Shown here in pieces: positions 1,952-42,739 of a stretch of 64,000 bases of DNA. The DNA is taken from IMG/VR virus record IMGVR_UViG_3300040811_000504, positions 2,732 through 66,731 of that record; one strand, 5' to 3'. Origin of the DNA: a virus (taxonomy: Duplodnaviria > Caudoviricetes). Each line of letters starts with the position of its first letter. The stretch's first letter is position 1. The notes beneath the pieces were generated by a model. It saw only the letters and a list, made by a program, of their open reading frames with translations. It made no database searches and was not told where the DNA came from. The translations under genes were made by a program, and so were the position numbers.

Positions 1952-3523
1952 TTACAATAACCAAGTTATATCTTCATCACCTCTACCAGTTTTTACCTTC
2001 CACGAATCTTTTCCTTTTGATTGATTCGTTCTGAATACACCTGTGTTTTTAGAAGTTAATGATAATGCTCTTTTATTGAGTTCGATACCCTGTTGCCTTA
2101 ATTTTAATGCGGTATCTCTTACCCATAGAGATGTTGAGAAGGAAATTACCAAGTCATCATTGTAACCCTGTTGTGCTTCTGCTCTACTACCATTCCAAAT
2201 GAATACAAACAATTCATCTATCAACCTTTTAGAACGAATAATAGGAACTCTTTCTCTCATATAGGTATCTAACTTAGATATCACCAATGGTCTGGTTCTA
2301 CTTGTCATTGAGAAACCAGGCACCATCTGAGATTTATCTTTTAAATCATATCCTTTTTGTAAATGAATATCATCATCTACATATCCAAACTCTTTGTAGG
2401 AATAATATAAGTTTGAATAATTTCTATCAATTGCTTCTTGGATTACTGCCCATCCAATATTTGCGTTTTCAATTACTAATAATGCATCGTTCCATTCGGT
2501 TGCAACATTTACCAACATATTACCATAATGTTTGGTTTCAATCTTACCTCTGTATTCTGCAACCTGTTCAACCGATTCTACATCAATAACGTGAAATGCC
2601 GAATAATCAGCACCATCTCCCCTCGCAACATCCGCTACCACAATGTAATCTTTTGCGTAGTTTGGTTGTTGCCAAATCCAATAGTTTCCATCAAACCCTC
2701 TTTTCTCAACCGGCTCTTGTACATGAGTTTCTTCATACCATTGTAGAAGTTGCCCATCAACAACTGTATAACCAGATGAAATGAAATCACAATCACATTC
2801 TTGTGCTGCCATCTTTTCACCCAATAGTTGAGTTTGTTCTGCTCTCCACTTTTTGTTTCGTTCTGGATGAACTGTCCAATGGAGTTTGATTGGATTCCAA
2901 CCATCACCCCCTTCACCCTTTAACCATGTCTTATGAAAGAAGTTACCAACCCCATTTGGAGTTGATAGTACAATTGCTTTACCACCAGTCGAAAGTGTTG
3001 ATTGTGCAGATGCCCAAATTGAATCAATACCTTTGATAAACGCAGCCTCATCAATAATCAACATTGATAGTGCTTCGGAACGACCCGCATCACCACTTGC
3101 TGATGTTGCTTTGATTGTTGAGCCATTACCTAACCTAAGTGATAGTTTGTTATCTTCTACGGTATCACCTCTTAACCAACTTGGTAGGTTCTCATGCATA
3201 TACCTAACTTTGGTAACTAAGTTTTTAGCTACCTCTTGTTTGGTTGCGATTACCAAAATGTTTTTATCTTCGTGGAATAACATCATCCATAATGAATAAC
3301 CTGCGGATAATGTTGAGATACCTAACTGACGGGATTTAAGGATTACATTGAATCGATGTTCATTGAACTCATCCATTACATCTTCTTGAAAAGGATACAA
3401 ATCAAATAGAATCTTTCCCCTTTTAGGATGTTGGATGTAACAATACTTTTTAAAAAAGTAAACTGGGTTTTGAGCACATTTAACGTACTCTTCTCTAATA
3501 AGTTCTTTTATACTCTGCCCCAT
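1952..3523 (-). CDS. terL: Terminase large subunit (T4 gp17-like)
   Basis: LYPFQ adenine motif, KSRQLGIST Walker A, LIIDEAAF Walker B, STPNG, nuclease DVARGDGADYS and NDDLV. Confidence 0.95.
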   Translation of the reverse strand: MGQSIKELIREEYVKCAQNPVYFFKKYCYIQHPKRGKILFDLYPFQEDVMDEFNEHRFNVILKSRQLGISTLSAGYSLWMMLFHEDKNILVIATKQEVAKNLVTKVRYMHENLPSWLRGDTVEDNKLSLRLGNGSTIKATSASGDAGRSEALSMLIIDEAAFIKGIDSIWASAQSTLSTGGKAIVLSTPNGVGNFFHKTWLKGEGGDGWNPIKLHWTVHPERNKKWRAEQTQLLGEKMAAQECDCDFISSGYTVVDGQLLQWYEETHVQEPVEKRGFDGNYWIWQQPNYAKDYIVVADVARGDGADYSAFHVIDVESVEQVAEYRGKIETKHYGNMLVNVATEWNDALLVIENANIGWAVIQEAIDRNYSNLYYSYKEFGYVDDDIHLQKGYDLKDKSQMVPGFSMTSRTRPLVISKLDTYMRERVPIIRSKRLIDELFVFIWNGSRAEAQQGYNDDLVISFSTSLWVRDTALKLRQQGIELNKRALSLTSKNTGVFRTNQSKGKDSWKVKTGRGDEDITWLL

Positions 3524-3526
3524 ATA

Positions 3527-4117
3527 CTACTTACCCAATTTCCATAGGAACTGAGTAGATAGTATTGGTTGTAAATTTTCATTGATACCAACTCCCAGTC
3601 CGAATGCTTGTTTTTTTCTTGTTCTATAAAGGAGTTGACCACCAACATAATTAAATTGATTTTGTGTACCATTTAAACCGAAACCAATATAAAATTCTCT
3701 TGGATTAATATATTTGGTTTCGGTAACGGTTACTGTTGGGTATATTAAATCGTATTGAATGTTTCTTGCCATAATTTTATTCTGAGATACACTATCAGTA
3801 ATTCGTAAATTTAACGAATCTAAATTCTGTACATCTTCATAAACATATGTTGCGAAATAATCTTCAAGTATAGATAGTGTATCAATCGGTTGTAGTACAT
3901 TTACTGTATCAACCTCTTTAACTATTCTTGTAACTACTTTTGGAATATACTTTGGAATCTCCTTTGTAATTGTATCATATTTTACTTCGGTTTTTGTAAC
4001 AATAGTTGGTTCAGTTGGTGTTACTTCACCACTACCACTACACTGTCTCATTAGTAAGATAACAATTATCAATACTAAGATTATTACATTTCTAATATCG
4101 CCGAAGTATTTATTCAT
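3527..4117 (-). CDS. Membrane-anchored hypothetical protein (possible lipoprotein or spanin-like)
   Basis: N-terminal hydrophobic helix followed by QC; C-terminal beta-rich segment. Confidence 0.45.
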   Translation of the reverse strand: MNKYFGDIRNVIILVLIIVILLMRQCSGSGEVTPTEPTIVTKTEVKYDTITKEIPKYIPKVVTRIVKEVDTVNVLQPIDTLSILEDYFATYVYEDVQNLDSLNLRITDSVSQNKIMARNIQYDLIYPTVTVTETKYINPREFYIGFGLNGTQNQFNYVGGQLLYRTRKKQAFGLGVGINENLQPILSTQFLWKLGK

Positions 4118-4540
4118 TTATTTTTTGTGATACAATCCGTACACCTTATTTACTAAGTTTGTTTTTGTTAAGTTAGAATCTAACTCAACTTTAAAATCTT
4201 TCTTAGCTAATTTAAGTAACTCATCTTTTTTCATTACTCTTAAAGAACTCTTTGTTGGTTTGGTTGACTTTCTACCCTTTCGTTTAGAACCCCCTGCTGC
4301 TTCTGCAACATCAACAATTTGTTCTTTTAAATCTTTTGCAGATTTTTTAACGTCTTTGAGTTCTTCTTTTACTCTCTTAACTCTACGTTTGGTTTCTGAT
4401 TTAACTTCCTCTACTTTGTCCTCAACAACATCAGGAATTAAATCACCATCTTCATCTTTAATCTTACCTGTCTTTTGTAAGATAACGATTGCTATTGCTA
4501 AAACTGTCGCAATCGCCAAAATAACTAAAATTGTGTTCAT
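4118..4540 (-). CDS. Membrane-anchored protein with C-terminal Rho-N/SAP-like helical domain
   Basis: N-terminal TM helix, charged coil, C-terminal MKKDELLKLAK...TKTNLVNKV. Confidence 0.5.
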   Translation of the reverse strand: MNTILVILAIATVLAIAIVILQKTGKIKDEDGDLIPDVVEDKVEEVKSETKRRVKRVKEELKDVKKSAKDLKEQIVDVAEAAGGSKRKGRKSTKPTKSSLRVMKKDELLKLAKKDFKVELDSNLTKTNLVNKVYGLYHKK

Positions 4541-4579
4541 AATAATACTTGTTTTAAGTTTAACTGTTTAGAATAAATA

Positions 4580-4867
4580 TTAAACTTTTTTTAATAAACG
4601 TATTTTTAGATTTGTATCACCTTTTATGATTCTGTGATACTCTAACTTTTTGATACTGATTGTATCACCCTCTTTTAATTCGAATGGTAGTTCATCATCG
4701 TATTGAAACTTCCAACCCTTACCTTCTAAGATTGTAACTTCTCTATCTTCTTTATCTCTGTGCCAAACCAATTCTGATGAATCGGTATCTACTGAGAATT
4801 CTCTAATGTAAGTATTGTTTCCTTTACTTACTTCGTTGTATGGATTACCACCACTGTCCACCACCAC
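4580..4867 (-). CDS. Small cupin-fold protein
   Basis: WHRD...E...LEG.GW and YHRII cupin metal motifs. Confidence 0.6.
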   Translation of the reverse strand: MVVDSGGNPYNEVSKGNNTYIREFSVDTDSSELVWHRDKEDREVTILEGKGWKFQYDDELPFELKEGDTISIKKLEYHRIIKGDTNLKIRLLKKV

Positions 4868-5375
4868 TTAAACCTAATGATTTTGCGTAACGAGGTAATC
4901 TACAACTCCAATATGATGCAGTTGTTTTATCTTTGGTTTGTTCACATTTGTGTCTTGCTTTGAAAGCTGCTTTTGCTTTCGGGTCTTTTAACTTAACAGC
5001 CAATTTACCACCACCACTATCTGCACCAAATGTAATCTTACGAATGTTTCCACTCTTTGGGTCTTTTACATATACTTTGAACTTACCACCACCACTATTG
5101 TTTCTCATTGGTTTTGATAGTTCAACTTTCTTACCCTGATATTCTGCCTCTACTAACATTGGAAAATCTAAAAGTACATCGTTACCTTCGTATACACCAA
5201 CCTTACCGATATCAGAACTTAGAAACATATCTAAATCTTCTGAAACTACTTCTAATTTTAATGCTCTTAAATCGTTATAGTACTCAAAGAATTTTGTAGA
5301 ACCATATCTGTATGGGTTTTTGTGTAATGCGATTTTATTATCCACATTGTACATTATACCTTCGTTGATTTTCAT
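4845..5375 (-). CDS. Conserved basic phage protein, probably head-packaged
   Basis: KFKVYVKDPKSGNIRKITFG...FKARHKC...ASYWSCR resembles a conserved myophage hypothetical; MKINE start and LVEAE linker. Confidence 0.55.
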   Translation of the reverse strand: MKINEGIMYNVDNKIALHKNPYRYGSTKFFEYYNDLRALKLEVVSEDLDMFLSSDIGKVGVYEGNDVLLDFPMLVEAEYQGKKVELSKPMRNNSGGGKFKVYVKDPKSGNIRKITFGADSGGGKLAVKLKDPKAKAAFKARHKCEQTKDKTTASYWSCRLPRYAKSLGLSGGGQWW

Positions 5376-5386
5376 AATATGATTCC

Positions 5387-7711
5387 TTAGTTAATATATG
5401 ATGTTAATTCGAATTTACCACTATCCATTCCATATAATGAAATGTTTAATGCTTTTCTTTGTGGTTTGCCATTCTTTGTTAATCCAACTGAGAATGAATG
5501 TGTTTTACCAACACCTGGTCTTAAACGATTGTGTTTACCACCCATTGCGATTTGAGTTTGCCAATCATCTTCATCAATTTCAAAACCTTTTTTCTCAGCG
5601 TACTTTCTTGCAGCATCTGCTGCATCCGATGCAGATTTATAATAATCTTCATTTATTGATTCTGAAAATTGTTTGATTATTTTCTTTTGAACTGGATTTC
5701 CTGGTCTACCTGCTAATGCTGATACAATTGCCATTCTTTCTGGAAGTTTACCCTTTTCAACAAATTTAAGAAGTTTAGTAATATTTAATCCATGTTTAGA
5801 AACGAAATCCTCAACTGCTTCGGGTCTTGTACCTGTGTAGTATGCAATCTTTTTGATTTGTGGTTCAATACCTTCATTCACCTTTACACCAACGGGTTTG
5901 TTAGATTTTACAACCATTCCCTTACCACCATCTTTCTCAACTGATTTTAAGAATTTCTTAGCATCAACTTCTTTTGTATATGCAGCCGAAGAAGGTTTTA
6001 CATTTCTATTAGGTAAGTCTTTTTTAACTTTGTACATTACTACAAATACTTTATCCTTACCTTCGTTTACTGATTCACCTAATGACTTACCATGTAGTTT
6101 ATGTAATTGTTTGATTGTATTTGTATTTTTAAGTTCCATGTGGTCACCTTCGAAATCTACAAAGTAATACTTATCACCATCAACATATACATAATTAACA
6201 CCTGGCATATAACCACCAAGACCATTAACCTTAATCTTTTTCATTCCTTTTAGAAACTTCTTAGAGGTAGGATTAACTTTTTGTGCTTCGTTTACTGATT
6301 TTATTATTTCATTTAATCTATTAGTTCGTTCTGTTAGAAATCTAAGTTTAGTCTTATCACCTTTATATTTCTTAGTTAAAGCAGATAAGTAATTTCTGAA
6401 TAGGGTGAAGTTTTGTAGTATATCACCTCTTGTTGGTTTAATTTGAGCATCACTTCCATTATCTCCACGAACAGCTTTCATAGCATCTAAAAACTTATCA
6501 TCTAACACTTTAAGATAATCAACAAATGTCATATCTTTTGCTTCGTTTACTGATTCATTTTTCTTAATTTGTTTTTTTAACTTATCAATTTCTTTTTTTA
6601 CTTTAGAAACTAATGGTTTGTATTGGTCATCATTTGTAATATATCCTAATAAACTTTCAAATTTAGATATTTTTTGTAATACTTCTTTTTCAACTCTACC
6701 TTCGTTTACTGATTCTCTCACATATTTCTTCCAGTCATTGTATTCAGGTGCCATTCCGACGGGTTGTATGTATTTTACTAACTCTCTCTGGTCTCTTAGT
6801 TCATAGATTGATGTAGCGAATTTTGATTTCAAATCAACGTAAAAATGTTCACCATAGTAATCAATAACATATGCACCCTTCTTACCTTTAAGGTAACCAT
6901 CTTTATTATGAAGTAAAACACCAGTAGCACCAGTTGGGTTTGATTGTGATTCAATATATTTTACAGGTGCATCTTTGATTAGCTGATAGTACTTGTGCCC
7001 TCTACGTGGTTCAACCATACCTTCATTCTTTTTTTCATCTGAACTTTTGCCAAATGTAGAATGTACTAACTTATCTAACTTCTTATGAAATTCATCTTCT
7101 TCCGTAGACGTTGCTTCACTTTTTTTAGTTCTCCAACCACCACCTGCTGCTTTGTATTGTTTTGCTGCCCAAGCATTTGCATATGCTGATGGGTATACAT
7201 CGAACTTCTTCTTTGCCTGTGATTTGTAGTAAGACCATTTAGATGGATTAGTTGGAACATTCTCTTCAGTAAGTTTCATTACTCTTTCTTCCAAACCCTT
7301 TTCTTTTACTACTTTCTCAATCGTATCAACGTGTCCTTGTATGTAATCATGTTCTTTTTCTAATCCCATCAGTTTAGCCATCTTCATAATGTTCTTAGCG
7401 ATGTTTTTAGCAACCATTACATAATCTCTTTCTGGTTTATATCCATCTCTTTGGATATGTTCTTCTACAAAGTAAAGTGCATCTTGTAATCTTGCACTTC
7501 TTTCAGCCATATCCATATCAACACCTTTAGATTCTATATCACCATATAGTTTTGATGCACCTGGACAAACGTGGAAATATTTTGTTTGATAATTTCCTAC
7601 TGAAATTTCTTGTGGGTCATTTTCATCTTCACCCATTTGACTCATATCTTCATACTCATGTGAGTGAGTTACCTCTTTAATGTAGTTATTTACCCATTCA
7701 TTTAATTTCAT
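5387..7711 (-). CDS. 774-aa modular polyprotein with repeated (E)SVNE linkers; putative internal head protein precursor
   Basis: Modules separated by ESVNE/KSVNE/ESINE/KVNE/KKNE; includes the AKKKFDVYPSAYANAWAAKQYKAAGGGW module seen in myophage hypotheticals. Confidence 0.6.
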   Translation of the reverse strand: MKLNEWVNNYIKEVTHSHEYEDMSQMGEDENDPQEISVGNYQTKYFHVCPGASKLYGDIESKGVDMDMAERSARLQDALYFVEEHIQRDGYKPERDYVMVAKNIAKNIMKMAKLMGLEKEHDYIQGHVDTIEKVVKEKGLEERVMKLTEENVPTNPSKWSYYKSQAKKKFDVYPSAYANAWAAKQYKAAGGGWRTKKSEATSTEEDEFHKKLDKLVHSTFGKSSDEKKNEGMVEPRRGHKYYQLIKDAPVKYIESQSNPTGATGVLLHNKDGYLKGKKGAYVIDYYGEHFYVDLKSKFATSIYELRDQRELVKYIQPVGMAPEYNDWKKYVRESVNEGRVEKEVLQKISKFESLLGYITNDDQYKPLVSKVKKEIDKLKKQIKKNESVNEAKDMTFVDYLKVLDDKFLDAMKAVRGDNGSDAQIKPTRGDILQNFTLFRNYLSALTKKYKGDKTKLRFLTERTNRLNEIIKSVNEAQKVNPTSKKFLKGMKKIKVNGLGGYMPGVNYVYVDGDKYYFVDFEGDHMELKNTNTIKQLHKLHGKSLGESVNEGKDKVFVVMYKVKKDLPNRNVKPSSAAYTKEVDAKKFLKSVEKDGGKGMVVKSNKPVGVKVNEGIEPQIKKIAYYTGTRPEAVEDFVSKHGLNITKLLKFVEKGKLPERMAIVSALAGRPGNPVQKKIIKQFSESINEDYYKSASDAADAARKYAEKKGFEIDEDDWQTQIAMGGKHNRLRPGVGKTHSFSVGLTKNGKPQRKALNISLYGMDSGKFELTSYIN
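6061..6715 (-). repeat. In-frame 16-bp direct repeat GAATCAGTAAACGAAG (coding strand), 4 copies plus 1 degenerate
   Basis: Copies at 6061-6076, 6286-6301 (1 mismatch), 6541-6556 and 6700-6715; degenerate copy at 5647-5662. Confidence 0.9.
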
Positions 7712-7720
7712 AGTATTACC

Positions 7721-8008
7721 TTACTTTAATTTTTTAGAAATAGAATAAAAATCTAAAACAAACCCATATCCAGCACCATTATAAGTTCTATCAATTTCCA
7801 TTGGTAATTTTAATTTACTCTCCAATACTTTTAGAATGATATAATCAATCAATTCATCACCACCTGCTCGCGCAGCAATAGCACTTTGTAATTTATCTAA
7901 ATCCTTAGATGATTTAGCCATTGCAACTAAACCTTTATTTTTTATTTGGGGAGTGATGTTAAAATCTACGTTATATTTCTCACTACCTGCTTTGATATTT
8001 ACTTTCAT
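7721..8008 (-). CDS. Hypothetical protein
   Basis: In-strand ORF, tightly packed. Confidence 0.6.
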   Translation of the reverse strand: MKVNIKAGSEKYNVDFNITPQIKNKGLVAMAKSSKDLDKLQSAIAARAGGDELIDYIILKVLESKLKLPMEIDRTYNGAGYGFVLDFYSISKKLK

Positions 8009-8010
8009 TA

Positions 8011-8427
8011 TTATGCTCCAGTTTTACTGTTTGTTGGTGTTTTACCTTTATTACGATTTCCACCTTTTTTAGAATCACCGGCTTTCTTTTGTGCTGCACG
8101 TTTTCTTCTTACAAATGTGGCTCTACCTTTTGGTCCTAATTTGTTGGCTTTCTCTTTCGATAAACAAGCAGCATATGCACCACCTTCTTCACCATCACCA
8201 CACTTACCTAACTTCTGACCATCCGAACCATATCTATCCCAACCACCACCACTTGCAGTACCAGTCTTTCCTTTACCGAACCATTTTCTTAAATCTTCAG
8301 TCATCATATTCTTTTGAATCAGATGTTCGTACATATCAGATTTTACATACTCTAACGCAAGTGATTCTTCTACGCCATCTTTAGTGTAGGTTTCATATAC
8401 GTTCTGAATGTACTCTCTTAGATTCAT
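8011..8427 (-). CDS. Conserved basic phage protein, probably head-packaged
   Basis: MNLRE start; EDLRKWFGKG...GGGW...GKCG...C.SK..A...FVRRKRA motif known from myophage hypotheticals. Confidence 0.55.
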   Translation of the reverse strand: MNLREYIQNVYETYTKDGVEESLALEYVKSDMYEHLIQKNMMTEDLRKWFGKGKTGTASGGGWDRYGSDGQKLGKCGDGEEGGAYAACLSKEKANKLGPKGRATFVRRKRAAQKKAGDSKKGGNRNKGKTPTNSKTGA

Positions 8428-8672
8428 TTATTTTCTTCTTCTTTCTTACCCCAAATCTTATCAACTGATGCTAATCCTAATGCTCCAAATGCAAGAGCTG
8501 CAACTGCGTTGATTAAAACGGGTGAAGGTGCAATGTGTTCTTCAGTAAATTGGTTTGCGAATAAAGTTACACATAATGATAACCCTGCAATGATACCAAT
8601 AAATCTTTTTGATGAAGGTGTACCCTTTTCATCTTTTAATAATCCTGAAATCCAGTTAATTACTTTCTTCAT
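8424..8672 (-). CDS. Small two-TM membrane protein (holin-like)
   Basis: SSKR followed by two hydrophobic helices and a charged C-terminus. Confidence 0.45.
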   Translation of the reverse strand: MKKVINWISGLLKDEKGTPSSKRFIGIIAGLSLCVTLFANQFTEEHIAPSPVLINAVAALAFGALGLASVDKIWGKKEEENK

Positions 8673-9249
8673 TTTGTTCTCCCTTTAGTTTATCAATGAA
8701 GTTTGTTTTAAACTTCTCAAAACCATCATCAATCTTAGCAGTGATTTCATCTTCAGATAAACCATCCCATTCTTCAATAGAACCATCCTCATTAATGAAT
8801 GATGCTTTGATTGTTGTTTTTAGAACTTCTTTTTCTATTTCAGCCTGTTTCAACCAAGACTCAGCATTATTTAAAAGTTTTGTACGTTCGTATTCTTCGT
8901 ACTCCCCTTTTAATTTTAAATCATGCTCCATATCAGTAACACAATCTAAACACATACCATGATATGCCTTCATCTTTAAATCAGCAGAACCAGGGTCTGT
9001 ACAAGTACAAACATCTTTTTTACAATTTGGAAATCCTTTTAACTCTTCTCTTAGTTTGGCGAGTTTCCCAACCTTTACTTTGTAACCTTTACGTTGTTCC
9101 CATCGTTGACCTTTATCATCAGTCCAAACTTCTCCAACTTCTCTTCTTACAACTTCTTTTGTATCAAACGCAACCGTCTTTTTAGTTTGGGTTTTGTGTT
9201 TACCCTCTAACATTTCACTAACTGCTTTGATGTTCTTTAATTTTGCCAT
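8656..9249 (-). CDS. Hypothetical protein with Cys cluster (possible Zn-binding)
   Basis: CKKDVCTC...CLDC. Confidence 0.55.
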   Translation of the reverse strand: MAKLKNIKAVSEMLEGKHKTQTKKTVAFDTKEVVRREVGEVWTDDKGQRWEQRKGYKVKVGKLAKLREELKGFPNCKKDVCTCTDPGSADLKMKAYHGMCLDCVTDMEHDLKLKGEYEEYERTKLLNNAESWLKQAEIEKEVLKTTIKASFINEDGSIEEWDGLSEDEITAKIDDGFEKFKTNFIDKLKGEQNEESN

Positions 9250-9282
9250 AACTTTATTTTGTATATAAATATCTAAATATAT

Positions 9283-11898
9283 TTAAAAATACATTAAACC
9301 TAATATTTGGTTTAATGATGCGAATGCCCCAGTCAACTTATAAGTGTTTCCTTTGTAAACAAATACGATTCCTTCATTTGGTACAATCTTATCTTTACCA
9401 CCTACTGCAGCCAATCTTTCCAATTCCATTCTTAATTTTGCAATCTTAGCTACATCACCCGATTTCTTAACGGCTTTTACTGTGTTATCCAATTCCTTCT
9501 GCATATCTCTCAATGCTTTATTTGGATTCACTACTAATACTGAACTCATAAATGAAAGTACCTCTGCACCAACACCTAAGAAAATATCTTCAAACTTACG
9601 AAGATTATCTTTTGATATTTTTGCCTGGTCTTGTTTATCGGTTTTCTTTGCCCAATCTAATACTTTGGAATCTTTGATGTTTTTATTATCTAATCTGAAT
9701 GATTTATCTAAGAATGCCCATCTTTTTACCAACCCCATTTTAGTTTTGTTATCCAATGATGATGGTGAGTTTTTATCAACCCAATTTTCCCACCAAGCCT
9801 GATGATAATTCGCAACACCATCTGAATCTTTTAGTTTAAATTCTTTTTGAAGTTTATTCAATTGTGAATTAAACTTACCCTGCATTGATGAAAGGTTTTT
9901 ATTCTTTGGTAATTGAGTTACAGGTGGTCCTTGAATTGTGTAATTATCTTGCACATCTTTGTTGATTTGTTTAATCATACCTGCCAATGTTCTTGCAGTT
10001 GATGTATCTGCACCAATTGCTTCACCATCTTCATTATAATCCATAGTTCCGTGGAATACCAATAATGGTTGACCATAAGGTACTACATTAACTGAAGTTG
10101 GGTAGATAACTTCTAAGTTCATAAACGATGAACCTTGTTTGAATATCTTATCTCTTTGTGCTTTTGATAGTGATTTAATCGCTGATGTTAAATCTTTCAT
10201 AGCAAAATTGTATGCATCGGTTAAACCACCTCTACCTTGAAACTTAGATGCAACTCCACTAATATCTAATGCGTTTTCACCACTATTTTTGAGGTGTCCT
10301 TTATTTCTTGCTGCTATTAAACCTTTATCATCTCTCCAACTAATTGCTAATGCTTGACCATCGGTTTTTTCTCTTGCGAATTCTAAGTTACCATTTAATG
10401 CGTTTGATATAATGGTTTTTAAATCACCAAAAGTTAAATTCATTTCAATATCAAATGGGTGATTCATATGACCATATGCACCACCTTCCATAATCAAACC
10501 CTCCCTCATAGGTTCAGTTTCTACATCTTGTGTAAAGTTAAACTTAGGTTCTTTTACAGGTGCATCTTTAGTATCTTCAATACCCTGCTCGGCATCTAAG
10601 AAGTCAACCAACTTATATCCTACGATTGTAGCAACACCTTTGATTTTATCAGCCCATGCTTTATATGCCGCATTACCTCTTAAATCGGTATATCTTTGTG
10701 ATTGTGCATCCAAACCTGCTTTACCAGATGGGAAGTACGATACTGGATACTTATCATCTATACTTCTTGCACCATCTGCGAAGATTGAATCATCATCGTT
10801 TCCTAAAATATAATCCACAACTTGCCACCCTAATGCCTCTGCTGCATCATTACCAATTTTCTTATATGTTTTTGAATTACCATATGTAAATCCCGGCCCA
10901 TCATCAACCACACTCTTTCCACTAGCTGGTGTAGCGGATGCTTCATCAATCTTGTTCAATTCCTCACCCTTAGAACCAACACCAGATGTAACGTAATCAT
11001 CAGTTTCAATTGGTTCTTTTAATGCTTTGTTGGGTTCTACTTTTTTGACAACTGAGAATGCTGCTTTATCCGAATTAATTGAATCTTTTGAGTAAATGTA
11101 ATCCGCCTCTGGAAAATGTAATTGCTCATAACCACCTCTATTAAACCAGGGTTCAGGTTTTCCAGAATCAGTTCCCAATTTCCGTTTGTATCCACCAGGG
11201 AGATATCCAGTTTCAGGTTCTCCGGCATCCGCATAATACATACTTGCTTCTATGATAACATCGTTCATATCAAATGTAGATAAAAACGCCTCCACCTTTC
11301 CAAATATCTTTGTTAATCGTGTTGTAATCAATGTGAAGATTTTAGAATCAAACTTACCATCATACACTTTTTTGAATCCATTGATTTTATCGGATTCAGA
11401 ACCTTGTGATAAAAGTTTTCTTGCTTCAGTTCCACTCATACCACCACCACTTGATGGTGCTACATAAACATATCCCTTATCCTCATATCCCTTATCGATT
11501 CTATCTGGATGGTATGGTTCAAAGTATTTACCTTTTAATCTGTATCTATCTTTCTCGCCAACAACAGTTACGAAGGCAGTTGTTTTATTATCGAACTTAC
11601 CAATAATTTCTTTAGGTGCATATGGGTTTTTAATTTCAACGATTTTGCTCGATGGGATACCAAACATCTTCATCATAATCATTTTCTTTTCTTTGAATTT
11701 AAAAGGTGATTTGATGTTATCAGTTTTATTAGATGTTCCAATGTAAACATTATCTTTACCAAACTTTTTTACTAAGTGTTGGTATGTACCATAATGCCCC
11801 TTATGAAATGGTTGAAATCTACCTGCGTAAACAACTACCTCTTTTTTTATATCTTCAGTTAAGATTCCCTTAACCCACTCTTTTATTAGATTCCCCAT
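9283..11898 (-). CDS. Multidomain protein: N-terminal HxGH nucleotidyltransferase plus C-terminal ATP-dependent ligase-like domain
   Basis: GRFQPFHKGH and SGTEAR (nucleotidyltransferase); KTDG, NLEVIY, NEGIVF, TYKLTG (covalent nucleotidyltransferase motifs I, III, IV, V). Confidence 0.65.
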   Translation of the reverse strand: MGNLIKEWVKGILTEDIKKEVVVYAGRFQPFHKGHYGTYQHLVKKFGKDNVYIGTSNKTDNIKSPFKFKEKKMIMMKMFGIPSSKIVEIKNPYAPKEIIGKFDNKTTAFVTVVGEKDRYRLKGKYFEPYHPDRIDKGYEDKGYVYVAPSSGGGMSGTEARKLLSQGSESDKINGFKKVYDGKFDSKIFTLITTRLTKIFGKVEAFLSTFDMNDVIIEASMYYADAGEPETGYLPGGYKRKLGTDSGKPEPWFNRGGYEQLHFPEADYIYSKDSINSDKAAFSVVKKVEPNKALKEPIETDDYVTSGVGSKGEELNKIDEASATPASGKSVVDDGPGFTYGNSKTYKKIGNDAAEALGWQVVDYILGNDDDSIFADGARSIDDKYPVSYFPSGKAGLDAQSQRYTDLRGNAAYKAWADKIKGVATIVGYKLVDFLDAEQGIEDTKDAPVKEPKFNFTQDVETEPMREGLIMEGGAYGHMNHPFDIEMNLTFGDLKTIISNALNGNLEFAREKTDGQALAISWRDDKGLIAARNKGHLKNSGENALDISGVASKFQGRGGLTDAYNFAMKDLTSAIKSLSKAQRDKIFKQGSSFMNLEVIYPTSVNVVPYGQPLLVFHGTMDYNEDGEAIGADTSTARTLAGMIKQINKDVQDNYTIQGPPVTQLPKNKNLSSMQGKFNSQLNKLQKEFKLKDSDGVANYHQAWWENWVDKNSPSSLDNKTKMGLVKRWAFLDKSFRLDNKNIKDSKVLDWAKKTDKQDQAKISKDNLRKFEDIFLGVGAEVLSFMSSVLVVNPNKALRDMQKELDNTVKAVKKSGDVAKIAKLRMELERLAAVGGKDKIVPNEGIVFVYKGNTYKLTGAFASLNQILGLMYF

Positions 11899-11913
11899 AA
11901 TGATAAATATCCT

Positions 11914-14900
11914 TTAATTAGTAGAACCACTTTCTAAGGTTTCAATTCTACTTTGTAAATCTTTTATTATTTGTTGTTGGTCTTGAATTGCTTTAATCAT
12001 TGGTGATATGAACTCTTCATATTTCAATGATAAATATCCTTCGTTTCCATTATAACCACCAAAATCATCTATATGTACATCAAACTCAGCAAGAGATTGT
12101 GATACTTCCTGTGCAATCAATCCATAGTGAGTTGTATTATCATCTTTGAAATCATACTTAACTGGTTTCAAAGATTCTATAAATCCTAAACCTAATGGAG
12201 AAATTTCTATATTCTTTTTTAGGTTTCTATCTGAGAGTGTATCTACTGAATTTTTAAGATATGCGGTTTGCCATCTTTGTTTTGGCCTACCCAATGTATA
12301 TCTTGAACCTGATACAGATTCAAATAACGATGATGTAATAATTGGTGCAAAGTGTCCTTTATGTGCGGTTACCTCTTTACCATCCCATGTTAAGTAAGTA
12401 TCTTTAAAGTGAAGTGTTTGTGTATCAATAGCAGCAACTCTTGCGGGTTCAACCATTCTCATTTCAGTTAATGCCCAACCCAATCCATTTACACCACTAC
12501 CAACAGTACCAGTTGCATTTGAACCACTATACAACATTCCAATTCTAACTTTAAATGAATTTTCAATTGATTTATTGGAATTGTTTGTTGCTTCTATTTC
12601 TAAAATATCGGATATCGGAATATCAAATACAGTCCAACTTTTTTCAGTTGCGTTTTCATCTTTATACACTTTTGTGTAGTATGTGGTTGAACCTGAAATT
12701 ATATCAATTTTATATTGTGGGAAGAATCCAGTAAATCCACCACTATGTGGGTGAGTAGTTCCCCTTACGGCAAATTGTAAATGTGCGTTCTTATATTCAG
12801 AACCTGCGAATGATTCTGAAATATGTATAAACTCCGATGTTAATGTTTTGTATACATTTGAACCTGTTCTAAATGTATTTTCCTTATTAAATACTAATTG
12901 ATTTCCTATTAGGGTTGGTGATAAAGATGAACTTGCGTTAGCAACGTCTTGTTGAGTAAAATCATTTATAAATTTATAATCTTTACTAACACCACTTATA
13001 TCATACCAACTTTTAAATTCAGCAGGATATCCCACACCATCTAACGCAGAACCTGTAACCAACATTTGTGGTGTAGATTGGAAAACCGAAGATAATGACC
13101 ACTTACCATGTGAACCTTGAAATGATGTTTTAGAAGAACCAGTTAAGGATGTTAATCTTACATCCGTTGATGATGTTGAATATGTTTCAATGAATGGTAA
13201 TTGGTATCTAATTGATGGTACAACTGGGTTTTGTACTCCTAATTCTACAATTTTACCACCTAAGTAAGTATCTTGTATAAAACCACTACTAGCTCTTAAA
13301 TCTCCTTTAACTTCTAATGTAGTATCAGTTAATGAGAATAACGAAGAACTAATAATTAATGAACCATTAGAACCTGATATAAACCCACCGGCTGCTCCAA
13401 AATCAAATTGATTTGCGTTAATATTTAAATCAGAACCTGAAATAGTACCACCCGAAAAGTTTACCTGAGAACCTGTAATGTTACCCGATTCATCTACAAA
13501 GAATTTAGATGAACTTATCTCACCACTACCACTTATAGAGAATGTTACTTTTTCTACAAATGAGCCCGATTGATACCCCATAGAGATTTTACCACCTTGT
13601 GTGGTAGAGTTGTATGTGTTTGTTGATTCATAATCAACTGCGAATTTATTAAAAGATATAGTATTAAATGTCTCATCATCAGGATAAAGAGATGCTAATT
13701 CAGCAGCGGTTAAATCGGTTTGAACTCGTATGTTATCTAATCGTTGAGTTACATTTACTGGGTCACCGCCTCTATCTACAACTAATCCTAAAGCTTGGTT
13801 TAAAGGAAATTCTGGTGTTCCAACTTCAATAGAACCTGATTCTGCAATATCCAATGGCCATATACCATTTATGATTTCTAATTCAGATGAAGATGTGGTT
13901 TCTGTTATTGCAAACGTATGTCTAAGTTTTAGTGGTAATCCCCTACTACCACCCTGCCAAGATGGAATATCTAATGAGCCTGGACTTGTATTCCACGTTG
14001 TTAAACTACCAGATGTTTCTATTTCAAACCAACCTGCAAGTGAACCTGTTGTAGTATCAATACCATTTAATATACTAATTACATCTGGATTTACAAACCA
14101 TCCAGGTTTTAATAATGCAGCGTATACTGATGCTTCATTATTAGTATAGTTTTGTGGAGTAATTTCACCAGTACTAGAGAATGCGAATTCTGATGTAATT
14201 CCCAAAAGTTCAGCTGTACCTGAGTATCTAAGCCCTTCCCCAAATGCATTGACCAATCCTTTTGTTAAGTATTCTGACCAAGTGTTTGGAGAAACACCAC
14301 CAAATTCTGCTATCTGTTGAATATACACAAAAGATGAACCAGTTATTGTATTGAATTGTGATACCGTTATTGAATTTCCACTATAAACTGTTGTTGATTT
14401 CGTTGGTGCAAGCAAATAGGCATTTGGGTCATCTGTAACAGCGGTATATGATGCAGTTAAAAAGAAAGTGTGGAAGCCAGTACCATCTCCATTTCCATCT
14501 AACTCACTTAAATTAACCGAACCACTTGAAACCCAAATATATTGTGGGTTTGGTGAATATGTAAATGCTGATGCAGTCCAATATGCATTTATAAAATCAG
14601 TTTCGGGTGATGTAGAATTTGTATTACGTGCAAATCCTACGATTGGTACGAATGATTCATAATTAGTTGCGAGCGTAAATTCTTGTGAATCTACTGGCGA
14701 CCAATCCTGTATAGATAGGTTAACATCAGAAGAAGATACTGTAGTTGATGATAATGAACCTGTTAATTGTGATAAATCATCTATATTGATATCTACGAAT
14801 CCATCTAAATCCAGTCCATTTGGAAAAAGCCCAACTCTATCATCCAATGGAACTCCTCTGACATCTGTAAATAGTGATATTCCAAAGAAATCTGATGTTG

Positions 14901-17900
14901 GGTTAATATTATAAGCAGGGTTATCAGGTAACTCGAATGCAAGTGCATCTACACCCTCTACCGTTGATAAGAATTCACTCAAAACATCAAAGTTTTGGAA
15001 TTCAGAATCAAAGGCAAATTGACCATTAACTATTGATGATGAATATGCGGCAATAGATGCTGTTGGATATGCTACTGATATAGATGATGATTGAAATTTC
15101 GCACTAACTGCTACTGATTGATTAGCTGCTGAATTGTATTGTAGTGATTCTGTATAGAATATTTCAAAATCAGAATTTTGTGCAAATACATTAACACTAT
15201 CTAATGTTATAGTTGTATCTACTACACTTTCTATACCCATATTTGATGAGGTAACGCCTGTTATGTTGATGGTTGCTCTACTATCAACATATAATGGAAT
15301 TTCGGCGCCCCGAGTACTACCACTGCGTTCACTAATTGGAGTAAATTCTTCCACCAATCGTAATGCATCAAATTTAGATGATGAGATTATAAAGGATGCG
15401 ATTCTACCTGATTCTGCAAATATTTGGCCAGATGAACTTAAAATCAGTAATGAGTTTGATGATGATATTGTCGTTTCATTTATACCAAACCCACCAATTT
15501 CACCAAAAGTAGCTTTGATACCACCTTGTAAGAATACATTGTTTGTTGCTAATCCATATCCTGGTGTTGAACTTCCAAATACATAATCACTTCCGGCCAA
15601 TCCACTTAAATCACCAAGTCTCGCAGCAAGAGTTACATCGTAAATATCAGAACCTGTTCGTTCTACTATATCCATAAATGGTGTTGCGGTATCAGATGGG
15701 TTTGCGTTTAATTTTATATATCCCGTCCCAACTTTTCCAGTAGATACTACAACTTGTCCATCCTCATACAATTGTGATGCTGATGCAACATCCCCAACAA
15801 AATCACCAGATGAACCTGAACCATATCCTCTTGTTACATAAATTCTACCATAATTTTCATCTTCATTACTTTGATTACCATCAACTGATGATGAATTTAC
15901 TAAAATGTATTCTGTTTGAAATCCAGTACCATCTACTTTTTTTGCAATTAGGATTTCACCACTTTCAAATCCTTTTACGTTTTTAACAGACATTGTTGCA
16001 TCAGTAGTTAAAACTGAACCTGTAATTGTTGTTGAATTAGCAACCCATAATTGACCACCAACTGCGTTTACAGATTCTTTTTCGAATGTTGTGGTTCTCA
16101 TTGTACCTCTGATTCGAACATTTTCGAATTCAGCAATACCATTACCTTCTGAAGAAATCTTCCAACCCTTTACACCTGTTGTAAAATCTCTTGTTTGTAG
16201 AATACCCTCAGGTTTCATTAAAAGGTTTCCACCTTCTATTGAGGCGGTTGTTATGTCCCAACCACCAATGGATGCTGATACAAATCTAGCAAAACCATCC
16301 GAATCAATAGAAGATGATGAATTTGTTCTTGTTGATGGAGACCCGTTAATTATAGCAGGTGTTCTTAAATTATTAACACTTAAATCTGCGTTAATAACTG
16401 CATCTGCCCCAATTACTAATAAATCATTTACTGGGTCTAAATGAAATAACGATGAACTAATTTCTATATTACCATCAGAACCACTAATAAATTGTGAATC
16501 AGTTGTACCAATAAAAAACTTATCAGTTTTAACATCTAATAAACCACCATCATGTGTTGTAAATATGAAATGCCTATCATCGTTATCACCAATCATCTGT
16601 AAACCTACACCTTGTAGGTAATCATCTCCAACTCTTAATGCATTAGAACCACTATAAATAATAAAACCACCTGGCCCTTTACCTAACGATGCGGAAGTTT
16701 GTCCTTCAAATCCAACTGAACGTATGAATCCACTACTTGCACCACCCACTTCAATACCACTACCAATTGCGTTTGATATAAAGATAGAACCTGTTATAAG
16801 GTTATCCCCACCACCAAAGTAGAAGTTACCACCTTGAAATACAAATGGACTTGTAATAGTTTCAGTTCTTGATATTTCACCAATAGAGTTTAGATATTGT
16901 ATTTTTAATAATTTTGGGTCTTGTAGGTTTTCCGATGGGATTGGTACTTTTACACTAAATGATGAACTATATGGTACAGTTACCTCATTTAGTAATTCGT
17001 ATTCACCTGGTAACCCATCTGATTTAATTAATACTTTTACTTTATCAACTACACCTGCAATTGGATTTACATTTGTTAATGTTAAGTTAGCAAATGAACG
17101 TTGATTTTCAGTAACTATATTAGAACCCGTTTGAAAGTATTGAATACTATAATTCGCAGATTCAATATTATTGTAAGTGTGTAGTAACTCTTCTCTATCT
17201 GCAAATGAAGTTGTATATGGGGTTTTTAAAACAGCCGTAGTTACATCTAATACTTGAGATATAGATGAACTATAAAATGTATCACTATTTGGATTTGGAT
17301 ATTTTGATATTGGTTCTGCGGGAGTTTCGTAATTTGATAGTACGAATGAGTACCCCAACATTTCTTCATTGAATTGAGAACCATCTGTAAGTTGTACAAT
17401 TGGTGTAGTACCTCTAAATAAATATCGGGCACCATTTCCGGTTTGAGATTGGAGTAATAACTCATTACCACTTTGAGGTTGGTTTTGATATGCCTCAATA
17501 CTTTCAGAAATTGCAACTGAAGGTAATGTGTTTGATTTAAAAATTACAGATGATGTATTTTTTCTATCTCTATCTACATTTACAGTAGTCTGCCATCTAA
17601 CATTAGGTTTACCTCTGAATCTCTCAGGTATTGGCTCTCCATTGTTACCAACTTTTGATATACCAACTAATGTAATTACTGCATCGCCATTTGCAGTATT
17701 ATCATCACCTTTATCGTTATAAATCCAAATTGAAATTACCCTACTCTTATCTGCTTCTAAATAATCGGGTATTTCAAAGTATATTGCATTTCCATTAGAA
17801 TCCCTTACATCCACAAGAATTTGTGAACCTTCTACCAAATTAGTAGGGTGTGCTGATATCCTTAATAGGTTCTTACCTTTTTGTAAAACTTGAGGAACAT

Positions 17901-18003
17901 CAGATACTCTAAAGTATTTTGGCGATGTGTTCGTTGTATCATCAATATACACCGAAACATTCGATAAATTTTCTCTTGCTGCTTTTTTAAATATTAAAGA
18001 CAT
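11914..18003 (-). CDS. Long tail fibre/spike with C-terminal intramolecular chaperone (peptidase S74-like)
   Basis: SDRNLKKNI...LKPVKYDF...YGLIAQEV...L.YEEFISPMIKAIQ plus terminal coiled coil; Ser/Gly/Thr-rich beta repeats. Confidence 0.85.
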   Translation of the reverse strand: MSLIFKKAARENLSNVSVYIDDTTNTSPKYFRVSDVPQVLQKGKNLLRISAHPTNLVEGSQILVDVRDSNGNAIYFEIPDYLEADKSRVISIWIYNDKGDDNTANGDAVITLVGISKVGNNGEPIPERFRGKPNVRWQTTVNVDRDRKNTSSVIFKSNTLPSVAISESIEAYQNQPQSGNELLLQSQTGNGARYLFRGTTPIVQLTDGSQFNEEMLGYSFVLSNYETPAEPISKYPNPNSDTFYSSSISQVLDVTTAVLKTPYTTSFADREELLHTYNNIESANYSIQYFQTGSNIVTENQRSFANLTLTNVNPIAGVVDKVKVLIKSDGLPGEYELLNEVTVPYSSSFSVKVPIPSENLQDPKLLKIQYLNSIGEISRTETITSPFVFQGGNFYFGGGDNLITGSIFISNAIGSGIEVGGASSGFIRSVGFEGQTSASLGKGPGGFIIYSGSNALRVGDDYLQGVGLQMIGDNDDRHFIFTTHDGGLLDVKTDKFFIGTTDSQFISGSDGNIEISSSLFHLDPVNDLLVIGADAVINADLSVNNLRTPAIINGSPSTRTNSSSSIDSDGFARFVSASIGGWDITTASIEGGNLLMKPEGILQTRDFTTGVKGWKISSEGNGIAEFENVRIRGTMRTTTFEKESVNAVGGQLWVANSTTITGSVLTTDATMSVKNVKGFESGEILIAKKVDGTGFQTEYILVNSSSVDGNQSNEDENYGRIYVTRGYGSGSSGDFVGDVASASQLYEDGQVVVSTGKVGTGYIKLNANPSDTATPFMDIVERTGSDIYDVTLAARLGDLSGLAGSDYVFGSSTPGYGLATNNVFLQGGIKATFGEIGGFGINETTISSSNSLLILSSSGQIFAESGRIASFIISSSKFDALRLVEEFTPISERSGSTRGAEIPLYVDSRATINITGVTSSNMGIESVVDTTITLDSVNVFAQNSDFEIFYTESLQYNSAANQSVAVSAKFQSSSISVAYPTASIAAYSSSIVNGQFAFDSEFQNFDVLSEFLSTVEGVDALAFELPDNPAYNINPTSDFFGISLFTDVRGVPLDDRVGLFPNGLDLDGFVDINIDDLSQLTGSLSSTTVSSSDVNLSIQDWSPVDSQEFTLATNYESFVPIVGFARNTNSTSPETDFINAYWTASAFTYSPNPQYIWVSSGSVNLSELDGNGDGTGFHTFFLTASYTAVTDDPNAYLLAPTKSTTVYSGNSITVSQFNTITGSSFVYIQQIAEFGGVSPNTWSEYLTKGLVNAFGEGLRYSGTAELLGITSEFAFSSTGEITPQNYTNNEASVYAALLKPGWFVNPDVISILNGIDTTTGSLAGWFEIETSGSLTTWNTSPGSLDIPSWQGGSRGLPLKLRHTFAITETTSSSELEIINGIWPLDIAESGSIEVGTPEFPLNQALGLVVDRGGDPVNVTQRLDNIRVQTDLTAAELASLYPDDETFNTISFNKFAVDYESTNTYNSTTQGGKISMGYQSGSFVEKVTFSISGSGEISSSKFFVDESGNITGSQVNFSGGTISGSDLNINANQFDFGAAGGFISGSNGSLIISSSLFSLTDTTLEVKGDLRASSGFIQDTYLGGKIVELGVQNPVVPSIRYQLPFIETYSTSSTDVRLTSLTGSSKTSFQGSHGKWSLSSVFQSTPQMLVTGSALDGVGYPAEFKSWYDISGVSKDYKFINDFTQQDVANASSSLSPTLIGNQLVFNKENTFRTGSNVYKTLTSEFIHISESFAGSEYKNAHLQFAVRGTTHPHSGGFTGFFPQYKIDIISGSTTYYTKVYKDENATEKSWTVFDIPISDILEIEATNNSNKSIENSFKVRIGMLYSGSNATGTVGSGVNGLGWALTEMRMVEPARVAAIDTQTLHFKDTYLTWDGKEVTAHKGHFAPIITSSLFESVSGSRYTLGRPKQRWQTAYLKNSVDTLSDRNLKKNIEISPLGLGFIESLKPVKYDFKDDNTTHYGLIAQEVSQSLAEFDVHIDDFGGYNGNEGYLSLKYEEFISPMIKAIQDQQQIIKDLQSRIETLESGSTN

Positions 18004-42097: not shown

Positions 42098-42739
42098 TTA
42101 AATTATTTTATCGATTATACCTAATTCTAATGCATCGTTTGCTGATAAGAAGTAATCGTTTTGTTGATTCTCTTCCCACCACTTCTTATCCTTCTTTGTA
42201 CACTCTTCCATAATTGTATTACAATCATCTTCTAATTGTTCTGCAAACTTTGCGTTTGATTTTAAATCTGAAAGTTTACCTGCTGCGAATGATGATAGTT
42301 GGTGAACCATAATCTTAGAATGTTTAGATGCTGCTCTAACACCAGTACCTGCTGCGAGTAATAACGCTGCTGCACTCATTGCTGAACCTCTACATACAAT
42401 GTTGGTTTTAATACCTTCGTTGGTATCTAATGACCGAATGTAATCTATTAATCCTAAAGTTTCAACAACATCACCACCTGGTGAGTTAAGAAGAATTGTT
42501 ATTGATTTTAAATCTGAGTTTATTTTTCTAAGTAATCTTACTTTCGATATAACATCAAATGTTAAACCTTGAATGATTTCGTCTTGAACTAAAATAACAT
42601 TATCTCTGATATCTAATCCATAATCGAACTCTCTAAACTCTTGAAACCACTTCTCTTTTTCAGATGGAGTAGTTTCGTATCTTGCTTCAATATTACCACC
42701 AGTTGTAGTGGTTCTACCTTCGTTATACAAATCACTCAT
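42098..42739 (-). CDS. clpP: ClpP-family protease subunit
   Basis: NSPGGDV, AMSAAALL (Ser), MVHQ (His), NDYFLSA (Asp), LGIID. Confidence 0.88.
   Translation of the reverse strand: MSDLYNEGRTTTTGGNIEARYETTPSEKEKWFQEFREFDYGLDIRDNVILVQDEIIQGLTFDVISKVRLLRKINSDLKSITILLNSPGGDVVETLGLIDYIRSLDTNEGIKTNIVCRGSAMSAAALLLAAGTGVRAASKHSKIMVHQLSSFAAGKLSDLKSNAKFAEQLEDDCNTIMEECTKKDKKWWEENQQNDYFLSANDALELGIIDKII

Follow-up and report, generated by a model that had tools for sequence, protein, structure and literature searches.

A phage polyprotein gene assembled from exchangeable modules at a short in-frame repeat: a candidate shuffled capsid cargo of T4-like phages

We analyzed a 64,000-nucleotide stretch of viral DNA (hereafter, the window; positions 2,732 to 66,731 of IMG/VR record IMGVR_UViG_3300040811_000504, Duplodnaviria, Caudoviricetes) and focused on an open reading frame (ORF) at 5387..7711 on the (−) strand, which is open throughout, stop codon included, and encodes a polyprotein of 774 aa (P0001). 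The window, with a G+C content of 33.5%, derives from a large, uncultured, T4-like aquatic myovirus with a T4-type head module. Specifically, the portal protein (2-1894) matches Portal_T4/gp20, TerL (1952-3523) is 56-58% identical to the TerL proteins of Microcystis phage Mel-JY01 and Flavobacterium phage immuto, and baseplate wedge, primase, SbcCD-like and endonuclease VII-like genes come next in the window. The polyprotein is divided into modules by junctions of the form x-(V/I/L)-N-E, usually ESVNE and usually written as the same 16-nt word.

This linker word, GAATCAGTAAACGAAG, occurs exactly at the C/D (6700..6715, ESVNE/G), D/E (6541..6556, ESVNE/A) and F/G (6061..6076, ESVNE/G) junctions, with one mismatch at the E/F junction (6286..6301, KSVNE/A) and with two mismatches at the H/I junction (5647..5662, ESINE/D), always on the (−) strand, which is the coding strand. 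Copies are spaced by 159, 255, 225 and 414 bp, each time in frame, and all are read alike, the first 15 nt encoding E/K-S-V/I-N-E and the final G opening the next codon. Two degenerate linkers, VKVNE/G at the G/H junction (5872..5887) and EKKNE/G at the B/C junction (7021..7036), both on the (−) strand, keep the peptide pattern with different DNA; relatives carry ESVNE or ESVSE at the place of the latter. Altogether, the junction peptides comprise ESVNE (three times), KSVNE, ESINE, VKVNE and KKNE, and the N-terminus reads MKLNE. The ORF contains 8 [LIV]NE motifs versus 0.7 expected from window composition, and no other window ORF of comparable length exceeded its expectation. At ≤3 mismatches, the 16-mer had 6 matches in the window versus 0.71 expected in shuffles of the window.

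The identity of the ESVNE codons is not explained by codon usage, because the chance of exactly these codons was P ~0.04 for one ESVNE and P ~0.0016 for two further copies matching the first; AAC is used for Asn preceding Glu in only 35% of cases window-wide. A sixth site resembling the 16-mer (16062-16077, [−] strand; two mismatches) encodes an in-frame ESVNA inside ORF 11914-18003, which specifies a 2029-aa tail-fibre or spike protein. We rejected this site as a cassette joint and regard it as a chance resemblance, because the segment around it, TFEKESVNAVGGQL, is conserved in the tail fibre of a complete relative, G002.

The leader and the modules, named A to I, all lie on the (−) strand. 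The N-terminal leader MKLNE (aa 1-5; 7697..7711) is a candidate short capsid-targeting/cleavage peptide; the same MKLNE or MNLNE start is found in L002, L003, L010, L011 and L013, and WVNNYIKE follows it directly, placing a second [LIV]-x-E site at aa 13. Module A (aa 6-150; 7262..7696) is acidic (isoelectric point [pI], 5.0), is usually N-terminal in the family (internal in P0054, P0058 and P0065), and ends at the A/B boundary in VMKLTEE (aa 144-150; about 7262-7282), which resembles a fossil leader. Module B (aa 151-230; 7022..7261) consists of a basic DUF5872-like core (WSYYK..YPSAYAN..GGGW) and an acidic tail of ~30 aa ending in KKNE; the tail is found separately elsewhere, L044-L046 matching aa 187-228 only. 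As a DUF5872 (PF19197) member, module B fell below the gathering score, P0097 being the only homologue with a match (20 bits against a cut-off of 27.5).

Module C (aa 231-337; 6701..7021) ends in ESVNE, and module G (aa 551-613; 5873..6061) ends in the degenerate VKVNE. Between them lie module D (aa 338-390; 6542..6700), module E (aa 391-475; 6287..6541), which occurs alone, behind the leader MNL(K/R)EFIQTEIKSQISE, in P0165 and P0194, and module F (aa 476-550; 6062..6286), which is leader-borne in P0131. Module H (aa 614-688; 5648..5872) is helical and ends in ESINE, and module I (aa 689-774; 5390..5647) is an autonomous alpha/beta domain that in G002 is encoded by a gene of its own (99 aa; leader, MIKLKQLLNE). 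Apart from module A and the acidic tail of B, the modules are 53-107 aa long and have pI values of 9.0-10.0. An earlier note on this DNA had described ~10 modules of 30-135 aa; its coordinates, spacings and linker peptides were all correct, and its module count agrees roughly with the ~9-10 modules of 53-145 aa delimited here.

A single integrated fold across the linkers, which that note had named as an outcome against its reading, was rejected on structure prediction, which gave separate folds with disordered linkers. The AlphaFold model of the F-G-H-I segment consisted of confident domains (mean predicted local distance difference test [pLDDT], 83.9) with a low predicted template modelling score (pTM, 0.36), and pLDDT fell below 50 only at residues 69-75, 131-137 and 209-212, that is, at the F/G, G/H and H/I linkers. 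We excluded one integrated fold on the basis of the low pTM together with this restriction of low pLDDT to the three linkers. The whole-protein model in the ESM Atlas (pTM, 0.20) was of no use. Module I modelled alone (AlphaFold, 18 sequences) reached a pLDDT of 94.5 and a pTM of 0.79. The models fit exposed, flexible junctions between what are predicted to be autonomous domains.

We then searched for homologues among public metagenome proteins. A word-indexed search, in which 8,000 candidates were scored, returned at least 984 homologous proteins and an exhaustive search at least 2,859 representatives at 50% identity (E ≤ 1e-3; lengths, 71-1245 aa). When the nine query modules were mapped by BLAST onto 121 homologues, the modules recurred at 90-100% identity in differing sets and orders. 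Against the query order A-B-C-D-E-F-G-H-I, P0003 reads A-B-C-G'-D-H-I, P0009 reads A-B-C-G'-H-I, P0046 reads A-B-H-F, P0101 reads B-G-H-C and P0058 reads B-F-A. Upstream of module F we found ~20 unrelated sequences and upstream of module H more than 20, with similarity always ending at ESVNE. In an all-against-all BLAST, internal ends of high-scoring segment pairs fell on the linker Glu in 227 of 2,902 cases versus 50 of 5,590 for random positions, and the starts of these pairs peaked four residues before the linker Glu.

The same breakpoints were seen in DNA. Stretches shared at 95-99% identity by the window and L003, L004, L010 and L011 have both ends inside the 16-mer, and a 175-nt cassette (nt 997-1171 of the ORF), in which module D is bracketed by its two 16-mers, recurs in L003 at 98.9% identity behind a different module. 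The 16-mer is common to junctions with unrelated flanks, as is predicted by a recombination joint or by common descent of all joints. Comparison of the relatives showed that the gene is an array of exchangeable modules delimited by one conserved peptide/DNA word, demonstrated cassette exchange at the linker by comparative means, and showed the modules to be drawn from a large shared pool in which they occur as single genes or as fusions. The earlier note had proposed that modules are swapped by recombination at the linker repeat, and on this point protein and DNA comparison of relatives agree with it: module content and order vary exactly at the linker, where both protein and DNA homology break, and stand-alone versions of modules exist in relatives. 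An internal fossil leader, ESVNE-ESS-MKLTDILSE-NKYS, was also observed in G002 (L024, 19640-20617, [+] strand).

Family-wide, ESVNE outnumbers every other pentapeptide by a wide margin (186 times in 151 representatives versus 0.075 expected), and the residue after the linker Glu is A, G or S in 66%. Among 99 distinct ES[VI]NE linkers in 32 loci, 50 carry the exact 16-mer. Linker codons differ from the background in the same ORFs: TCA encodes 84% of Ser (versus 46%), GTA 98% of Val (versus 48%) and AAC 71% of Asn (versus 40%). We also counted [LIV]-x-E inside the modules, looking for a depletion that would betray selection against internal cutting; the motif came out enriched instead, in a count that includes further linker variants still lying within the "modules" as delimited here.

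In stand-alone modules, the linker is replaced by a leader of 5-17 aa ending in Glu (MIKLKELLNE, MKLTDLLNE, MKLNE or MNLKEFIQTEIKSQISE), and the mature part then begins with the residue that opens the module in the polyprotein. The ORF (MKLNE) and its neighbours (MKINE and MNLREYIQNVYE) likewise have a leader whose final Glu is preceded, two positions earlier, by a hydrophobic residue. The capsid-targeting sequence (CTS) of T4 is the 10-mer MKTYQEFIAE (PMC8442874), in which targeting depends on residues 4 and 7 and processing by gp21 on residues 8 and 10 (PMC9026906); replacing the P1 Glu of the CTS with Asp prevents processing and leaves targeting intact (PMC9026906). With Leu at positions 4, 7 and 8 and Glu at position 10, MIKLKELLNE is in the register of the T4 CTS.

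The same motif marks head proteins of the relatives. Two divergent major capsid proteins (MCPs) start with MNTNSLLNE/S and MNIRNILNE/G, the C-terminal region of the protease contains INE/S or VNE/S, and the protein encoded after the protease starts with MKNLKELLNE/S and contains ESVNE; all of these are proteins for which T4 biology leads one to expect processing. Within the first ~60 residues, the MCPs of L047 (1291-2889) and L038 (near 11994) have three to four additional [LIV]-x-E sites, e.g., GLLE/G and QLVSE/A. The last of these, QLVSE/A, is also kept in immuto (QIVSE/A) and may be the equivalent of the Glu65-Ala66 maturation site of T4 gp23.

A candidate processing enzyme is encoded by the relatives. 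The nearest relative, a 41.8-kb contig with a 75%-identical polyprotein of 680 aa (L002), encodes a Peptidase_S77 of the gp21 type (L001, 1006-1620; E = 1e-37) with the motifs GELDHP and GISSRG. Peptidase_S77 is also present in G002, a complete relative of 178,076 bp with terminal repeats, and in four of another five large records that contain family members, the fifth stopping at the polyprotein. The gene order in G002 is a tail fibre, a nucleotidyltransferase-ligase protein, 192-aa and 136-aa genes, the stand-alone module I and a 598-aa polyprotein, followed by 289-, 105- and 193-aa genes, TerL, the portal, two small genes and the S77 protease, and then by a 325-aa protein, two small ORFs (52 and 85 aa), an acidic scaffold and the MCP.

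Synteny across the head block extends to a cultured phage, Flavobacterium phage immuto (L049, MW353177). Its scaffold, MCP and protease have [LIV]-x-E/[AGS] leaders, and the 841-aa gene product 191 contains one NESVNE/G. Between the NMNAT-like gene and TerL of immuto (2831-11906), nearly every gene has a leader ending in [LIV]-x-E before A, G or S. Immuto offers a tractable system for virion proteomics.

Three neighbours of the ORF, all on the (−) strand, belong to the module pool. The first (4845..5375) encodes 176 aa with the leader MKINE/G, and its C-terminal domain is fused to polyprotein ends in 52 of the 262 collected relatives. The second (7721..8008; 95 aa) has the same domain as a C-terminal polyprotein module in 24 of the 262, including the 598-aa protein of G002, and the domain of the third (8011..8427; 138 aa; CTS-like leader MNLREYIQNVYE) is fused in 3 of the 262 and stands behind module A in P0227. 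Farther along, an 871-aa protein (9283-11898, [−] strand) has an N-terminal cytidylyltransferase/NMNAT-like domain (PHROG 395), a ligase-like KxDG region and the start MGNLIKEWVKGILTE. On the basis of this start and of the MGKLINE/W starts of its orthologues in L022 and L041, it may also be capsid-targeted and processed; in immuto, its position is occupied by a 907-aa gene annotated as NMNAT.

A ClpP-family protease is encoded among UvdE and HD-domain genes (42098-42739, [−] strand; Pfam CLP_protease, E = 2e-31). We rejected it as the processing enzyme, given its place among UvdE/HD genes and away from the head genes and given that ClpP is not site-specific; it is probably an auxiliary protease, not the prohead protease.

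Searches for the functions of the modules yielded few leads. With Pfam and PHROGs, nothing exceeded threshold for the ORF and its neighbours (weak matches, DUF4778, RasGAP_C, Nif11 and, for aa 163-197 in module B, phrog_27331 at E = 4.7e-4). No match at E ≤ 1e-3 was obtained by tblastn of the 774-aa protein against 50,697 cultured/deposited phage records, and the only sequence matches in the PDB were designed toroid repeat proteins and other chance similarities; no module had a recognisable function in these searches. With module I or F-G-H-I as the query, Foldseek matched nothing in PDB at E ≤ 1e-3, and the best hit of a wide VIA-align search with module I (Z = 4.9) was not meaningful. In BFVD, module I matched only uncharacterised proteins of uncultured phages. 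One BFVD entry, A0A6J5LTH6, is a 1134-aa uncultured Caudovirales protein annotated as anti-CBASS Acb1 with a module-I-like domain (TM score, 0.58 by query); this weak lead hints that such chains could include known anti-defence enzymes. A scan of 185,579 prokaryote species genomes with module I gave a single match, L054 (JBJKVO010000008.1), an 8.4-kb contig in a Dehalococcoidia metagenome-assembled genome, which most likely is a phage contig binned in error and says nothing about the host.

By analogy with T4, the gene product probably represents capsid cargo of the internal-protein type that is made as a polyprotein, cut at its linkers and varied through recombination in the linker DNA. We give similar credence, better than even, to the more specific proposal of a linker word that is cut by the prohead protease, a leader that targets the capsid and products that are internal to the head. 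The suggestion in the earlier note of a prohead-protease-like site has gained circumstantial support, as the linker fits the T4-type [LIV]-x-Glu rule, relatives encode an S77 protease and the motif ends the leaders of head proteins. That the products are ejected effectors we infer weakly, from the analogy with T4 Ip1-3.

In the proposed mechanism, the N-terminal leader (MKLNE here; MIKLKELLNE on stand-alone modules) would bring the chain into the assembling prohead core, like the T4 CTS, and a gp21-type (Peptidase_S77) prohead protease would cut after each linker Glu, leaving pieces of module size (53-145 aa) with the DNA in the head. The T4-like replication/recombination machinery would delete, duplicate, move and import modules; such exchange would keep both frame and cleavage site, because the same in-frame DNA word flanks every module, and a single word would thereby be protein-processing site and shuffling joint at once. 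In the last and weakest step, the released proteins would be ejected with the DNA and act early, e.g., against host defences, as T4 Ip1-3 do. More tentatively, and with slightly less than even confidence, we suggest that in an abundant aquatic T4-like clade the 16-nt word has two jobs, as an in-frame recombination joint in DNA and as a maturation-protease site in the peptide. The same suggestion, which we hold to be nearly but not quite in balance, would describe the locus as an integron-like array of exchangeable cassettes, in which one leader loads a re-assortable set of small effectors and stand-alone genes and modules interconvert via the motif.

Several observations weigh against this proposal. 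The prohead protease and MCP genes lie outside the window and are inferred from relatives; most linkers have V at P3, a position where T4 gp21 prefers L or I; some polyproteins, e.g., the 598-aa protein of G002, have no recognisable leader; and no module resembles a known anti-defence protein or a solved fold in the Pfam, PHROG, PDB, Foldseek and VIA-align searches. As to the joint, 16 nt is short for homologous recombination, and some fusions clearly arose via loss of a stop codon and intergenic spacer rather than by linker-to-linker recombination, because internal fossil leaders survive within them (ESVNE-ESS-MKLTDILSE in G002 and VMKLTEE at A/B). The earlier note had also spoken of DNA-level homogenisation of the linkers. 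The family-wide codon bias of the linkers favours this part of its account, yet codon identity among homologous module copies was 0.85 in the linker versus 0.79 in the adjacent module; since linker codons are barely more conserved than module codons, active homogenisation is not needed, and common descent with recent exchange suffices.

Among other explanations, the one that survives best, although we consider it unlikely, accepts cleavage at the linkers and makes the protein an assembly core or scaffold, whose fragments would be degraded and expelled in maturation, like T4 gp22, gp67 and gp68. The gene does adjoin head-assembly genes, module A is acidic like scaffold proteins, and in relatives the ESVNE protein directly after the protease occupies the position of a core protein. 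However, the modules are compact, confidently folded, basic domains, their extreme variability in content does not suit an essential scaffold, and relatives have a separate acidic, gp22-like scaffold gene.

Slightly less likely still is an unprocessed, beads-on-a-string multidomain protein, virion-associated or not, with the linker as an inherited hinge and its likeness to a protease site coincidental. The same motif ends the leaders of stand-alone modules and of MCPs, where a hinge would be pointless, the last-position Glu and the small residue after it are conserved, and the family co-occurs with an S77 protease, all of which count against a mere hinge; Val rather than T4's Leu or Ile at P3 speaks for it, as does the fact that a DNA repeat alone suffices for cassette exchange. 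Finally, we regard as very improbable that the 16-nt word is kept for a role in nucleic acid (as the target of a site-specific recombinase or homing endonuclease, or as an RNA-processing or translation signal) with the peptide secondary. Linker codon choice is indeed far from background, including the minor Asn codon AAC, but Pfam and PHROG revealed no recombinase or homing endonuclease at the locus, the degenerate linkers VKVNE, ESINE and KKNE keep the peptide while changing the DNA, leaders obey the peptide rule with different DNA, and the codons of the linker show no clear excess of conservation over those of the modules beside it.

We compared the proposed cargo polyprotein with known systems, among which, by analogy, the closest in function is the T4 internal-protein system and the closest in shuffling is cassette exchange at PeSLs (promoter-early stem-loops). 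T4 Ip1, Ip2 and Ip3 (and Alt) are likewise small, basic, hypervariable proteins near or within head gene regions, with a ~10-aa leader that has hydrophobic residues and a terminal Glu in the same register (4, 7, 8 and 10); the [LIV]-x-Glu cleavage rule fits both, and a gp21-family protease is present in this lineage. The T4 internal proteins are "highly basic" (PMC8442874), and Ip1-3 are injected and all inhibit Type IV restriction enzymes (PMC3012670, PMC9026906, PMC8442874, PMC12373910). In contrast, tblastn, Pfam and PHROG revealed no sequence homology here to IPI, IPII or IPIII, and whereas the T4 proteins come from single genes and are cut once, up to ten putative cargo units lie here in one ORF with internal sites.

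In PeSL shuffling of T4-type phages, too, a short conserved DNA motif flanks cassettes that are gained, lost and replaced (PMC2839356, PMC4122927), both systems lie in hyperplastic regions of T4-like genomes, and PeSL-like motifs flank the internal-protein loci of T-even phages (PMC2839356, PMC4122927). Excised circles have been examined for PeSLs by inverse PCR (PMC2839356). However, PeSLs are intergenic units of ~50-100 bp, a promoter plus a stem-loop, that move whole genes, whereas the word described here is 16 nt, coding, in frame and a putative processing site, and shuffles modules within one ORF.

The inner-body and ejection proteins of phiKZ-like and SPN3US-like phages are head-internal and are cut after Glu, sometimes at multiple sites, by a T4-related protease (PMC9026906, PMC5694885, PMC10052503), which is what we predict here. 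The phiKZ motif is S/A/G-x-E, whereas P3 is V, I or L in the linkers and leaders of this family. Moreover, phiKZ-like precursors lose propeptides and are not arrays of interchangeable, unrelated domains. To our knowledge, neither a DNA-conserved linker nor cassette exchange is on record for these inner-body proteins.

Polyvalent proteins (Iyer et al. 2017, PMC5512222) also carry many unrelated domains per polypeptide (2-15, compared with 9-10 modules here) and are proposed to enter along with the invading DNA and to be freed by proteolysis (PMC5512222). Unlike them, the 774-aa protein has neither a peptidase of its own (MPTase or zincin) nor recognisable enzymatic domains by Pfam, and its one uniform linker would depend on the capsid maturation protease. 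Compared with these systems, what is new is a joint that lies inside coding sequence, is in frame and doubles as a putative processing site; in the literature searched on the linker peptide and on polyprotein cargo of phages, no account of such an architecture turned up.

If this reading is true, aquatic T4-like phages would diversify their injected proteins not at the level of genes but by domain-level cassette exchange within one gene, with every exchange guaranteed to be in frame and processable. The T4 internal-protein paradigm of three single genes would be extended to a pool of thousands of variant architectures, and the capsid cargo of uncultured phages could be predicted from an explicit sequence rule (leader + x-[VIL]-N-E). 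Leader and linker together are also a natural design for packing multiple proteins into a phage head from a single construct. Hundreds of small, folded domains without an assigned function would become candidate early host-takeover or anti-defence proteins.

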